Positions 54,259 through 61,574 of a DNA stretch of 64,000 nucleotides are shown piece by piece (positions within the stretch are counted from its first letter, which is position 1; each line of letters opens with the position of its first letter). Source of the DNA: Eledone cirrhosa (Eukaryota); NCBI GenBank assembly GCA_964016885.1, contig OZ024761.1, positions 16,492,001-16,556,000 on the forward strand. The letters are read 5' to 3'. The position numbers and the translations under genes are program-made. The notes under the pieces were generated by a model, which was not told the DNA's origin, searched no databases, and saw only the letters and a program-made list of their open reading frames with translations.

Positions 54259-54294
54259 TTTCCTGATGAAGGGCTTATGCTTGAAACGTCGCAA
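54259..54294 (+). ncRNA. Minimal type I hammerhead motif (Penelope-like)
   Basis: TTTC-CTGATGA-A-GGGC-ttat-GCTT-GAAA-CGTC-GCAA. The core is present, stem III is the palindrome ACGT, the cleavage site is GUC, and stem I has one mismatch. A partial copy lies at ~54202-54220. Confidence 0.65.
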
Positions 54295-54586
54295 CCACAC
54301 ACACCCCACTCTCACCAAGCGTGAAACTAATATTTGTAACATTTACTCCTGCGTTTGTCCGTTCTTTTGTTTTCTAGTATTCCGAACTATAAAATAAGTA
54401 GAAGGGGTATTAATTTTAATTTGTTGGAAGTCCGACAAATATAAATGTTTATAACTGATTTAGAGCACTCAACAGTTTACTGGAATAAATATTCAATGAT
54501 ATTAAATAAATGGAAAATATATTTATAAAACCATATTTATTTTATTATATATATTTCAAGGGTACCAAGACATTAAACAAACTTTG

Positions 54587-54976
54587 TATTTTATCTGATG
54601 AAAGCGTACCAATGTGTCTTGGTACCCTTGAAATTCATTCATTTTCATTCATTTCATTTTACGTCCCCTTTTCCCTGCTTGCAAGGGTGGGACGGGAACT
54701 GATTCTGGCTTGATTTCTACAGCTGGATGCCCTTCCTAACACCAACCTCATTTACAGTGAGTGGTGGGTGCTTTTTTGCCGTGGCACCTCCACGACCACT
54801 TTGCAGTGGATCATCTCATTTCTACAGCTGAGTAAACTGGAGCAATGTGAAATAAAGTGTCTTGCTCAAGGAAACAACATATCACCCGGTCTGAGAATTG
54901 AACTCACAACCTTTCGATTGCAAGGCCAATGCTCTAACCACTAAGCCATGTGCCTCCAAATATATATAATAAAATA
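54587..54976 (+). ncRNA. Type I hammerhead ribozyme interrupted by a SINE
   Basis: Removing the SINE (54635-54958) restores TATTTTAT-CTGATGA-AAGCGTACCAA-tgtgtc-TTGGTACCCTT-GAAA-TATATA-TA-ATAAAATA. The inverted copy at 54503-54572 independently preserves the uninterrupted junction. Confidence 0.8.
54635..54958 (-). mobile_element. SINE family A inserted in a hammerhead
   Basis: Full-length copy lacking the internal hairpin, with a short AAT/AAAT duplication at the flanks. Confidence 0.9.
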
Positions 54977-55060
54977 AATATGGTTTTATAAATATAGTTT
55001 CCATTTATTTTATATATATATATATATATAAGATCAAAAGATGGTTAAATGAGTTCCATG

Positions 55061-55131
55061 TATTTTATTATGCGCATTTCAAAAACAAATATCATCATGC
55101 AATAACATTTGTGTTTTCATCAGATAAAATA
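55061..55131 (-). ncRNA. Type I hammerhead ribozyme, apparently intact
   Basis: Minus strand: TATTTTAT-CTGATGA-AAACACAAATGTTAT-tgcatg-ATGATATTTGTTTTT-GAAA-TGCGCA-TA-ATAAAATA. It has an 8-bp stem I, a long stem II, a complete core, a palindromic stem III (ATGCGCAT) and an AUA cleavage triplet. Confidence 0.88.
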
Positions 55132-56089
55132 GGAGGACATGATATGAAGGTTAAAAAACACTTGTGGATAGTGCAGTTTTAAATCAACATATATATATAT
55201 ATATATAAAGTCAAGGAAACACGAAACGAACAAACAAGAGGATGCAATAACAAATGTATTAGTTTCACGCTTGGAGGAAAAAGAATGAGTTGACATATAT
55301 ATAGAATTAGCTGTCAAAACGGCTTGAGCTCAGCCGTCGGGGTCCTACTCGTTCCTATATATATATATATATATATATATATATATTTTTGTACCATCAT
55401 AATTTTGGGTATTGTACAATTTTTTTTTTTTTTTCTCACCTGCTCTGAATTGATAACTTACATGCCATTATATATTATATATTATTATATTATTATTATA
55501 GTGTGATTGTGACATTCATAATATATATATATATATATATATATATATACTTAAATAATAATTTCTAAATTAGGCACAAGGCCAGGAAATTGGGCGCAGG
55601 GATAAAGGTCATCATCCAGACCCCAGGTGCTTGACTGGTGTTTTAGTAAATCGACCCCTAGAAGGATGAAAGGCAACGTAGTAGACCTTGGCGACATTTG
55701 AACTCAAAACGTAAAGAAAAGACCGTGACTAAATAGCGCAAAGTATTTCCTCTGACGCTCTACCGATTCTGCCAATCCACCACCTTCGATATATTTAAAT
55801 AGGAGGAGGTGTGCCTAAACGAAAAACTAGTTTCTTTCTTCCTTTATTACTTTGATATAGAAAAAAAGAATTACGATCGTTAGTTTTGTTACTTTCCACC
55901 TACTGAACATTGTATATATAATAGAAGAAAATATATCATCATCATCATCGTTTAACGTCTATCTTCCACACTTGCATGGGTTTGTAAGTATATATATATC
56001 AAAGTCAATGACACACGACCGTGACTTCTGGCGTCACGCAGTAATACAGGGTACCCGACCTCCCATGGGTACATGCTGAAGCATATAAA

Positions 56090-57712
56090 CACCTGTGTGT
56101 GTGTGTGTATATGTGTGTAAATGGCCACCCTCAAGTATTTCACCTGTGTGTGTGTATATGTGTGTGTAAATGGCCACCCTCTAGTATTTCACCTGTGTGT
56201 GTGTGTGTGTATATGTGTGTGTGTGTGTATATGTGTGTGTAAATGGCCACCCTCTAGTATTTCACCTGTGTGTGTGTGTGTGTGTATATGTGTGTAAATG
56301 GCCACCCTCTAGTATTTCACCTGTGTGTGTGTGTGTATATGTGTGTGTAAATGGCCACCCTCTAGTATTTCACCTGTGTGTGTGTGTGTGTGTGTGTGTG
56401 TGTGTGTGTGTGTGTGTGTGTGTGTGTGTGCATGGCCACCCTCTAGTATTTCACCTGTGTGTGTGTGTGTGTGTAAATGGCCACCCTCTAGTATTTCACC
56501 TGTGTGTGTGTGTGTGTGTATATGTGTGTGTAAATGGCCACCCTCTAGTATTTCACCTGTGTGTGTGTGTGTGTGTGTGTGTGTGTGTGTGTGTGTGTGT
56601 GTGTGTGTGTGTGTGTACATACATATGTGTGTACAGGGCCACCCTCTAGTATTTCACCTGTGTGTGTGTGTGTGTGTGTGTGTGTGTGTGTGTGTGTGTG
56701 TGTGTGTGTGTACATACATATGTGTGTACAGGGCCACCCTCTAGTATTTCACCTGTGTGTGTGTGTGTGTGTGTGTGTGTGTGTGTGTGTGTGTGTATAC
56801 ATACATATGTGTGTACAGGGCCACCCTCTAGTATTTCACCTGTGTGTGTGTGTGTGTGTGTGTGTGTGTGTGTGTGTATACATACATATGTGTGTACAGG
56901 GCCACCCTCTAGTGTTTCACCTGTGTGTGTGTGTGTGTGTGTGTGTGTGTGTGTGTATACATACATATGTGTGTACAGGGCCACCCTCTAGTATTTCACC
57001 TGTGTGTGTGTGTGTGTGTGTGTGTGTGTGTGTGTGTGTGTGTGTGTGTGTATACATACATATGTGTGTACAGGGTCACCCTCTAGTGTTTCACCTGTGT
57101 GTGTGTGTGTGTATATACATACATATGTGTGTAAATGGCCACCCTCTAGTATTTCACCTGTGTGTGTGTGTGTGTGTGTGTGTGTGTGTGTGTGTGTGTA
57201 TACATACATATGTGTGTACAGGGCCACCCTCTAGTGTTTCACCTGTGTGTGTGTGTGTGTGTGTGTGTGTGTGTGTGTGTGTGTGTGTGTGTGTGTGTGT
57301 GTGTGTGTGTGTGTGTGTGTGTGTGTGTGTGTGTGTGTACATACATATGTGTGTACAGGGCCACCCTCTAGTATTTCACCTGTGTGTGTGTGTGTGTGTG
57401 TGTGTGTGTGTGTGTGTGTGTGTGTGTGTGTGTGTGTGTGTGTGTGTGTATACATACATATGTGTGTACAGGGCCACCCTCTAGTGTTTCACCTGTGTGT
57501 GTGTGTGTGTGTGTGTGTGTGTGTGTGTGTGTGTGTGTGTGTGTGTGTGTGTGTGTGTGTGTGTGTGTGTGTGTGTGTGTGTGTGTGTGTGTGTGTGTGT
57601 ATACATACATGTGTGTGTACAGGGCCACCCTCTAGTGTTTCACCTGTGTGTGTGTGTGTGTATACATACATATGTGTGTACAGGGCCACCCTCTAGTATT
57701 TCACCTGTGTGT
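56090..57712. repeat. GGCCACCCTCTAGTATTTCACC + variable (TG)n array, ~20 copies
   Basis: Constant 22-bp core separated by TG tracts of differing length. Confidence 0.95.
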
Positions 57713-59840: not shown

Positions 59841-60306
59841 CACATACATACATACATACACATACATACATATATATATATACATACGTACACATACATA
59901 CATACATACACAGGGTGTCCCAAAAAAAATGTATACACACTTCAACGGCATTCTAATTTAATATTCACTGCACAGGTAATTAAAGTGTGTATACATTTGG
60001 AATTATGTATGTATATATATATATATATATATATATATAACGAAGGAAATGTGGTAAGGAACCAGATGGACCATAACGCACCAAAGTACTCAATACTGAG
60101 GGTAGTAGAGGGGGTAATAGGAACGAGTAGTACCTCGACGGCTGACCTTAAGCAGTCGCAGTCCAGAATTAGCCGTCGAAACGGCTTGATCTCAGCCGTC
60201 GGGGTCCTACTCGTTCCTATATATATATATATATATATACACACACAGACACACAATTCATTTTGATTAAGGCTAAATAGTGAGTCTTGTTACGCTGGAG
60301 TTTCGC

Positions 60307-60349
60307 CTGATGACCCTGTGATAAATAGGCGAAACTCCCGAGTAAGAAG
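60307..60349 (+). ncRNA. Hammerhead motif at the centre of a fold-back, 5' strand of stem I lost
   Basis: CTGATGA-C-CCTGT-gataa-ATAGG-C-GAAA-CTCCCGAG-TA, embedded in the inverted repeat 60256-60379. Confidence 0.6.
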
Positions 60350-60665
60350 ATTCACTATTTAGCCTTAATAAAAATGAATATTTAAACTCTACTCTCAGCC
60401 GTCAACTACATACGGATATGCATATATATGTGTGTCAGGACTCTTTAATACCAGTTCTCACATCTGTGAAATGGTAATAGAAAAAAAAGGGGTGAGGTTA
60501 CTACTCACTTTTGAGATAGATCTAAATTAGTTACCGAGATTAAAATCAGAGCCTCTGTCGTTTTAACTGATTATATATATATATCTGTGTGTGTGTGTGT
60601 GTGTGTGTGTGGAGTTGACAGTTGAGAGAAGAGTACTCAATACCGAAGTAGAGTTTAACTATCAG

Positions 60666-60711
60666 TGTCTGATGACCCCGTGAGAAACAGGCGAAACTCC
60701 AGTGTAACAAG
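60666..60711 (+). ncRNA. Hammerhead motif, same family as 60307 and 61526
   Basis: TGT-CTGATGA-C-CCCGT-gagaa-ACAGG-C-GAAA-CTCCAGTG-TA-ACA, followed by the family tail ATTTAGCCTTAATA. Confidence 0.6.
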
Positions 60712-61515
60712 ATACCATTTAGCCTTAATATATATATATATATACGATAAATGATCGTATATGTGTGTGTATATATATATATATGCATACATACATGTAT
60801 GTAAGTATGTATGCATGTCAGTTATTGAGGTTAAAGAAGAGATATGTGGCATATATTTACAACTGCCAGTGCCTATATCCTTTTAACTGGTTTTAAATAT
60901 ATACATATATAACATATATATATATATATAGTACATATATATATGTGTATATATATATATATATATAGTTATATAGTATATATTTTTATATATAAGTTTC
61001 TAAAGACCACCAATTGAAGTGTTTAGTGAAAATAATTTAGGTGGAGGTTACATTGAAAGGAACCAAAATCTTAAACTTAGAAATTCTGTACAGTGTCTAT
61101 GTGTGTGTATATGTATGTATATATACTTATAGGTATATATACATACATATATATAAATACAGTTCAACACACACACACACACACATATGTATGTATATAT
61201 ACTTATGGGTATATATACATACATATGTGCGTGTGTGTTGAACTGTATTTAAGAATTCCTTGTGATCATTGATCAAAACCGACTTCGATCTCGACATAGA
61301 AAGCATTAAAGTTAAGCAGAAATCGAAGTACTTTAGGTCATACATATACATATATATGTATGTATATATGTATATATATATATATGTATATGTATATATA
61401 TATATATATATATATATATATATATGTATATATATATATATATGTATATATATATATATATATGTGTGTATATACATATATATGTATGTATGTATGTATG
61501 TATGTATGCGTGTGA

Positions 61516-61574
61516 GAGTTTTTGTCTGATGACCCTGTGAAAAGTAGGCGAAACTCCACAGCAGCAAGACTCAC
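61516..61574 (+). ncRNA. Degenerate hammerhead motif, same family
   Basis: GAGTTTTTGT-CTGATGA-C-CCTGT-gaaaa-GTAGG-C-GAAA-CTCCACAG-CA-GCAAGACTC. Stem I is extended, but GUA is mutated to GCA. Confidence 0.6.

Follow-up and report, generated by a model that had tools for sequence, protein, structure and literature searches.

Hammerhead ribozyme motifs clustered in a stretch of the Eledone cirrhosa genome are the 3' ends of truncated Penelope-like elements

A 64,000-nucleotide stretch of the Eledone cirrhosa genome (contig OZ024761.1, positions 16,492,001 to 16,556,000 of the forward strand; hereafter the window) contains, in its interval 54259 to 61574, a cluster of motifs that resemble type I hammerhead ribozymes. 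An initial annotation, made from the sequence of the window, attributed them to small non-autonomous elements. The question raised by this locus is to which elements the motifs belong, and whether they still form ribozymes. We find that they are the 3' ends, or pseudo-long terminal repeats (pLTRs), of 5'-truncated and often inverted copies of Penelope-like elements (PLEs), with four families represented in the interval and five when a further motif at position 24318 is included. Very probably, these ends were nested in (TA)n by the elements' own reverse transcriptase (RT)/GIY-YIG protein and carry a hammerhead that is predicted to cut as a dimer.

The six cores reported in the interval and the seventh outside it are all present, within a few bases of the positions originally given. 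CUGAUGA followed by GAAA was found at 54263, 54595, 60307, 60669, 61526 and 24318 on the plus strand, and at 55123 on the minus strand. Only two of the seven, 55123 and 24318, are complete type I hammerheads. These two pass a type I descriptor, which gave no match in any of 40 block-shuffled windows, and the same pair passes a stricter version of it. The closing stem I assigned to the six motifs of the interval is present in one of them, and five of the six are broken, so the implied set of six functional ribozymes does not stand. Searching with the Rfam hammerhead models, which had been suggested as a check, gave no match in the window at the gathering threshold; among the 150 of 194 matches listed below it, there was one Hammerhead_3 match of 22 bits (threshold 48.5; E 0.61). 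In an E-value scan of the window with Rfam, (TA)n/(TG)n tracts that mimic microRNAs dominated the output.

The cores belong to five repeat families, A (54263), B2 (54595), B (55123), C (60307, 60669 and 61526) and D (24318). At least three families had been proposed, and four are indeed found in the interval (A, B, B2 and C), with D at 24318. Several of them are distinct, as supposed, but not all are unrelated, because B and B2 have a common stem I.

We searched the genome (3.0 Gb) for each family; every search began with 771-3119 first-look candidates and scored 40 of them. These analyses showed that the short copies of every family continue upstream, elsewhere in the genome, into a long 3' untranslated region (UTR) and a PLE open reading frame (ORF). 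The proposed check for genome-wide linkage to Penelope RT ORFs was therefore positive: all five families are linked to RT and/or endonuclease (EN) sequences. The 64-kb window itself contains no PLE ORF, in agreement with the initial annotation.

The most complete picture was obtained for family B, in which an ORF encoding an RT (YRDD) together with a GIY-YIG domain at the C terminus ends ~0.9-1.2 kb upstream of the hammerhead. The protein P0001 (808 aa) represents this single ORF, with the RT followed by the GIY-YIG endonuclease. All 127 scored genomic matches to the family B RT are 93-100% identical, 125 of the 127 are without an internal stop, and many lie in 821-aa frames. Moreover, in 6 of 16 long-ORF loci the ORF is flanked by two hammerheads in direct orientation, with 3.7-3.9 kb between them. 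With its open ORFs and paired pLTR hammerheads, family B is apparently active. The order RT then EN is also seen in broken copies of B2 and D: locus L272 contains a B2 pLTR-RT-EN-pLTR unit plus an inverted copy, and for family D we found RT-EN-hammerhead at L268 and EN-hammerhead at L266. Upstream of family A, frameshifted fragments of a degenerate RT (YIDD) and a Neptune-like GIY-YIG with a Cys linker are present in three loci (L264/L276, L277 and L303), and the family looks Neptune-like. For family C, the EN was reached in three upstream extension steps; EN, UTR and hammerhead are collinear in both L379 and L367, and at least 5 of 44 EN-region matches sit 1.3-2.5 kb upstream of known family C copies on the same strand. 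In L378, the upstream EN fragment comes from a different family and was not counted as a link to family C.

Families B, B2, C and D appear to belong to the Hydra clade of C-terminal EN+ PLEs (Craig et al. 2021, PMC8557442), an assignment that is based on motifs compared by eye, not on placement in a tree. As described in that paper, members of the clade, including Hydra-1_Obim of Octopus bimaculoides, likewise have a single RT plus C-terminal GIY-YIG ORF with R-W and DKT motifs, a CxCX5C linker and CxxC/CxH around the E and N; they insert into (TA)n, occur as tandem and inverted truncated copies and carry a type I hammerhead in the pLTR. Hydra-clade motifs are present in all four families, the EN of family C being of the Hydra type. 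DKT was found in B, B2 and D, and RW is followed by T (B) or R (B2 and D), not K; the published Hydra-1_Crog also reads RWR (PMC8557442). The CxCX5C linker, CxxC before the E and CxH after the N are present, a CCHH motif is not, and the 3' ends adjoin (TA)n both in the window and in genomic copies. In contrast to the length of less than 3 kb described for the clade, the family B unit measures 3.7-3.9 kb from hammerhead to hammerhead. The clade, already reported in O. bimaculoides, is credited in PMC8557442 with few non-cnidarian families, whereas the class described here comprises at least 93,329 copies.

The copies in the window are in various states of decay. The pLTR 3' end of family A (54255..54391, plus strand) contains core 54263 in a hammerhead of the minimal type, with an extra A after A9, a 4-bp stem II and a 2-bp stem III; stem II has decayed to G·U wobbles, and stem I is reduced to at most 1 bp, as in other family A copies. 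Next to it lie an inverted, 5'-truncated arm of family B2 containing the tail and the 3' half of the hammerhead (54392..54572, minus strand; lower boundary judged by eye) and the 5' part of a direct B2 copy (54577..54633, plus strand), which comprises the 5' strand of stem I, core 54595, a stem II with a C·C mismatch, and GAAA. This copy is broken in stem III, where a ~325-bp tRNA-headed insertion resembling a short interspersed element (SINE) lies in the TA palindrome (54634..54957, minus strand; tRNA-like match at 54891-54948, minus strand, 28.1 bits). The displaced 3' remainder picks up at ~54958 and has a (TA)n tract at its end (54958..55010, plus strand). The joint between 54630 and 54958, with 327 nt skipped, was seen in sequencing-run contigs. 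The family B pLTR 3' end (55030..55180, minus strand) is located between two (TA)n tracts. Its complete hammerhead (55061-55131) has an 8-bp stem I, a stem II of 3 bp, a C·U mismatch and 11 bp, a palindromic AUGCGCAU stem III and an AUA cleavage triplet.

The three family C copies are all defective. In the first (60251..60430, plus strand; outer limits approximate), an inverted arm (60251-60311, minus strand) is fused to a direct copy and occupies the place of the 5' strand of stem I of core 60307; the minimum free energy (MFE) structure is a fold-back that buries the core. A type III reading of this core was rejected, because the apparent stem is an inverted duplication. The second copy (60611..60731, plus strand), which is preceded by an inverted tail, combines core 60669 with a stem I of only 3 bp and a mispaired stem III. 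The third (61516..61592, plus strand; core 61526) has a C at position 16.1 instead of U, and shares with most family C copies a C·C at the stem II base. Several short family C copies begin with GAG where long ones read TTAG (window 61516-61530; loci L001-L030 and L306-L335). Finally, the family D copy, with an inverted tail (24258..24385, plus strand), contains a complete hammerhead at 24314-24370, whose stem II is of the C·C class.

The insertion footprint is that of PLEs, for which (TA)n targeting and truncated and inverted copies like these have been described (PMC8557442). Copies end 3' at (TA)n, in families B, B2 and D at one of two end sites; initiation at two adjacent internal sites has been reported for another PLE (PMC11167929). 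The 5' ends are ragged, with graded truncation among genomic copies of A, B, B2 and D, and an inverted truncated arm is frequent. The (TA)n borders noted originally are present directly at the 3' end of five of the seven window copies, and the other two are nested against further insertions. The type I anatomy with a palindromic stem III, the Penelope connection and the targeting of TA are borne out. Of the 52 genomic matches listed for family B, 46 are 100% identical over all 151 nt; this family is very young.

Families B, B2, D and their relatives share an unusual stem II, which consists of 3 bp, a C·C or C·U mismatch and at least four further pairs, together with a loop III that is a 6-nt palindrome. 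In a survey of 106 distinct copies in nine clusters, drawn from loci enriched for the searched families and selected ignoring position 4, this position was paired in none (C·C in 81, C·U in 21, other in 4), whereas positions 1-3 and 5-7 were paired in 98-105 of the copies, partly through selection. Position 4 was also unpaired in all 30 distinct sample matches aligned to the models, an alignment that leans to the model. In 12 hand-picked representatives, pairing amounts to 91%, compared with 29-60% in slid controls. Compensatory changes occur at 13 of 20 pairs, and none of 500 shuffles scored as high, which upholds the earlier statement that stem sequences differ and pairing persists. The catalytic core is unchanged except for position 7 in all 12. 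Across the B-type families, the sequence of stem I is conserved and stem II is divergent. The type I core (CUGANGA/GAAA/UH), stems I-III and an open stem I are found in B, B2 and D, and in the copies 55123 and 24318. Mismatches in stem II are a feature of all four Hydra-type families; in family C, it is the basal pair of this stem, 10.1-11.1, that is mismatched (C·C in 30 and C·U in 8 of 44 parsed copies). The invariant C·pyrimidine (C·Y) at the fourth position of stem II probably makes a tertiary or protein contact.

An exact pattern that requires the core, the palindrome and both mismatched bases (C and pyrimidine) has 93,329 matches in the genome, a mean of 31 per Mb, compared with 8 for the reversed control; scaled by 33/26, this gives ~1.2e5 copies. 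A sample of 59 arbitrary 10-kb stretches contained 44 pattern matches per Mb and extrapolates to 1.6e5 (bootstrap 0.9-2.4e5), which is too high because these stretches over-represent small chromosomes. Related loci in metagenome contigs were searched for, and none were found; of 237 loci with the core-plus-palindrome pattern in metagenome and viral contigs, none forms the stems, although the 2 of 64 and 23 of 64 parts scanned say nothing on distribution. We tentatively entertain the possibility that B, B2, D and their relatives define an undescribed hammerhead subclass, in which the C·Y contact would license cleavage only in the double-hammerhead state; it would reside on a still-active Hydra-clade element and amount to ~10^5 ribozymes, whose sense copies may cut pre-mRNAs and be selected against in genes.

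The way in which these copies arose can be proposed from known PLE biology. The EN of the element would nick (TA)n, reverse transcription would begin at one of two sites in the tail, and early termination and strand switching would yield short and fold-back copies. Each family's own RT/GIY-YIG protein likely laid copies one after another in (TA)n, and every insertion would leave TA tracts for the next one, leading to a cluster. Within a pLTR-ORF-pLTR transcript, the two hammerheads would be joined by pairing of their palindromic stem III, and their cleavage would release an RNA of unit length, a mechanism suggested in PMC4209133. For copy 55123, the active monomer has a predicted energy of -5.2 kcal/mol, 5.4 above the monomer MFE of -10.6, and the double-hammerhead fold is at -30.3 kcal/mol, 3 above the dimer MFE. 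Solo copies would be by-products, most of those in the window being dead; a lone copy such as 55123 is expected to show weak or no cleavage, because it has no partner in cis.

Several observations weigh against this explanation. In assays by others, PLE hammerheads showed poor cleavage, dimers included (PMC4209133). For families A, B2, C and D, the linked ORFs that were seen are disrupted, with no intact one found, and P0001 has no significant Pfam match (PF26215 is carried by 36 of 54 P0001 homologues); the by-eye assignment to the Hydra clade belongs here too. Shared ancestry can let related sequences pass the covariation shuffle test. The check for core conservation, which came out well for the 12 representatives, came out weakly for family A, which has no stem I and whose core, with 6.1% changes compared with 7.6% in the flanks, is only slightly better conserved than these; this family is a minimal hammerhead that decays close to neutrally. 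Lastly, the upstream UTR is kept in only 5 of the 40 scored copies of family C, which may include a short non-autonomous subfamily.

The last point touches on the idea that some of the short units, chiefly those of family C, are mini-elements of a non-autonomous kind, which multiply by themselves and borrow a PLE enzyme in trans. This is unlikely in our view, even though the 5' ends of family C lie close together at the stem I base, no more than ~12 nt from the core, no intact family C ORF was found, and a 2026 preprint makes the case that the retrozymes of animals derive from PLEs and are not autonomous (10.64898/2026.07.22.740005). A fixed 5' end was suspected for this family, and was rejected as a general rule because UTR-bearing copies exist: 40 further matches carry upstream UTR, extending to ~480 nt and on to the EN. 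The short copies have no common 5' sequence, and many of them are joined to an inverted arm, for which the self-complementary stem I can provide microhomology. Inversion at stem I, driven by such microhomology, could account for the pile-up of 5' ends, as could a splice acceptor like that of D. virilis Penelope. The graded truncation of the other four families also argues against mini-elements, and there are no tandem units in the window. The non-autonomous elements or retrozymes of the initial annotation have therefore given way to PLEs, because the families run upstream into PLE ORFs, with ragged 5' ends, inverted arms and no tandem array among the window copies. It is also rather doubtful that the hammerhead fold of these PLE ends no longer cleaves and is now a signal for binding or packaging by the element's protein. 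The low in vitro activity and debated role of PLE hammerheads (PMC4209133, PMC8557442), the conserved stem I of the B-type families and the stem II mismatches of all Hydra-type families would fit such a signal, but the nearly invariant core and the palindrome kept via compensatory change are what catalysis predicts, and a pyrimidine mismatch at the stem II base also occurs in cleaving natural hammerheads (axolotl Amex2, PMC7229834).

Regulation of a host gene is the remaining alternative. The first coding exon of a CDC42-like gene, a name that we presume from a motif in its translation, is located at 12594..12721 on the minus strand, 42-49 kb from the cluster, with the ATG at 12698 and an acceptor 22 nt before it. 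A candidate minus-strand splice donor (62836-62841) follows a long pyrimidine-rich stretch, and the region 63400-63900 is GC-richer and promoter-like; together they possibly mark a first, non-coding exon of CDC42 that is followed by an intron of ~50 kb, which makes a location of the cluster inside this intron plausible. That the host keeps the cluster to regulate CDC42 pre-mRNA through self-cleavage is nevertheless highly improbable. Six cores in 7.3 kb are at the top of the sampled range, and the intact 55123 is the one motif on the CDC42 strand, within the plausible first intron, but that intron is a prediction from sequence, five of the six copies are broken, and six of the seven motifs are antisense to CDC42, a number too small to be meaningful. 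Moreover, 55123 is identical to dozens of dispersed young copies, and its insertion is therefore recent. In the 59 stretches, the type I descriptor gave 46 matches, 12 of them in one tandem array, compared with none in 8 shuffles, and one other stretch holds six matches and is as dense as the cluster. With this and the genome-wide mean, the claim of a special concentration near the CDC42 promoter finds no support. The two 10-kb neighbours of the window gave no match to the five family models. The nesting is explicit: the B2 inverted arm begins in TA at the 3' end of A, B sits in the TA tract at the end of B2, and the SINE-like insertion lies in the B2 TA palindrome. In addition, the hammerhead copy count tracks the number of TA tracts in the 59 stretches (rho 0.33, p 0.01). 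The cluster therefore lies at the dense extreme of an unevenly distributed background and is explained by nested insertion of PLE ends into (TA)n.

Much of this was already known, namely PLE hammerheads, octopus Hydra elements and massive numbers of solo copies; the new point is the stem II C·Y ribozyme of three families. Small hammerhead variants of PLEs are reportedly described by Lünse et al. (cited in PMC6765202). The stem II architecture of B, B2 and D was not found in the literature searched; the figure alignments of PMC4209133 and Lünse et al. lie outside that search, so it may be in print. None of the 26 hammerhead rows in File S2 of PMC8557442 shows 3 bp, C·Y and an extension in stem II with a 6-nt palindromic loop III. 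Family C resembles the Hydra hammerheads listed there, with an ACUC/GAGU stem III and a pyrimidine mismatch at the stem II base, which is U·U in the published ones. Family A is like the minimal hammerheads of metazoan PLEs (Cervera and de la Pena 2014, PMC4209133), with an extra nucleotide between 9 and 10.1, G10.1-C11.1 and a 2-bp stem III. B, B2 and D differ from the hammerheads described in that paper in lacking the extra nucleotide and often G10.1-C11.1, and in having a symmetric mismatch where D. virilis Penelope has a single bulge; the palindromic stem III, the predicted dimer cleavage and the genome-wide solo copies from truncated PLEs are common to both. Between them, PMC4209133 and PMC8557442 cover pLTR hammerheads, inverted truncated copies and TA targeting in PLEs. 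The highest PLE hammerhead counts given in PMC4209133 are ~4,000 and ~9,000 per genome, and the two surveys report ~9,000 for Xenopus, >6,000 for coral, ~5,000 for mussel and up to 120,000 for axolotl (PMC4209133, PMC7229834). By a term search, the words 'ribozyme' and 'hammerhead' are both absent from the text of an O. vulgaris repeat paper (PMC13282606).

Taken alone, the cluster is unremarkable repeat debris; its value is that it reveals a very abundant hammerhead architecture, which is invisible to Rfam and to descriptors requiring at least 4 contiguous stem II pairs. Why PLEs retain hammerheads becomes directly testable in family B, with its open ORFs, paired pLTR hammerheads and diagnostic mismatch. 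In addition, at 31 exact copies per Mb, a depletion of sense-strand copies inside genes can be quantified and would report on cleavage in vivo.

The window copies share type I hammerheads, short non-coding units and very high counts with the non-LTR retrozymes (Cervera and de la Pena 2020, PMC7229834). In contrast to the head-to-tail tandem units of 170-400 nt described there, they are solo or inverted copies that differ in family or age, and all five families are traced to PLE ORFs, whereas a non-LTR retrozyme would be non-autonomous and not truncated from an ORF-bearing unit. Another locus, L248 (C20:6700001-6710000), contains at 3600-10000 a tandem array with a 466-bp period and at least 14 units, and is a candidate for a true non-LTR retrozyme. 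Every unit carries a canonical type I hammerhead, with 7 bp in stem I and 5 bp in stem II. Rfam gave no match in this array at gathering, and dispersed relatives are present in L154/L265 and L304.

A sixth family with a minimal hammerhead, which unlike family A has kept a 4-bp stem I, was seen at L205:3629, L239:265, L242:4724 and L092:6690. The window also contains short repeats that end at (TA)n and resemble PLE tails without a hammerhead, at 55209-55295, 55303-55357, 60165-60218 and 24465-24505, of which those starting at 55303 and 60165 are 96% identical. Between 56090 and 57710 there is a tandem repeat in which a unique spacer of ~25 nt alternates with variable (TG)n tracts.

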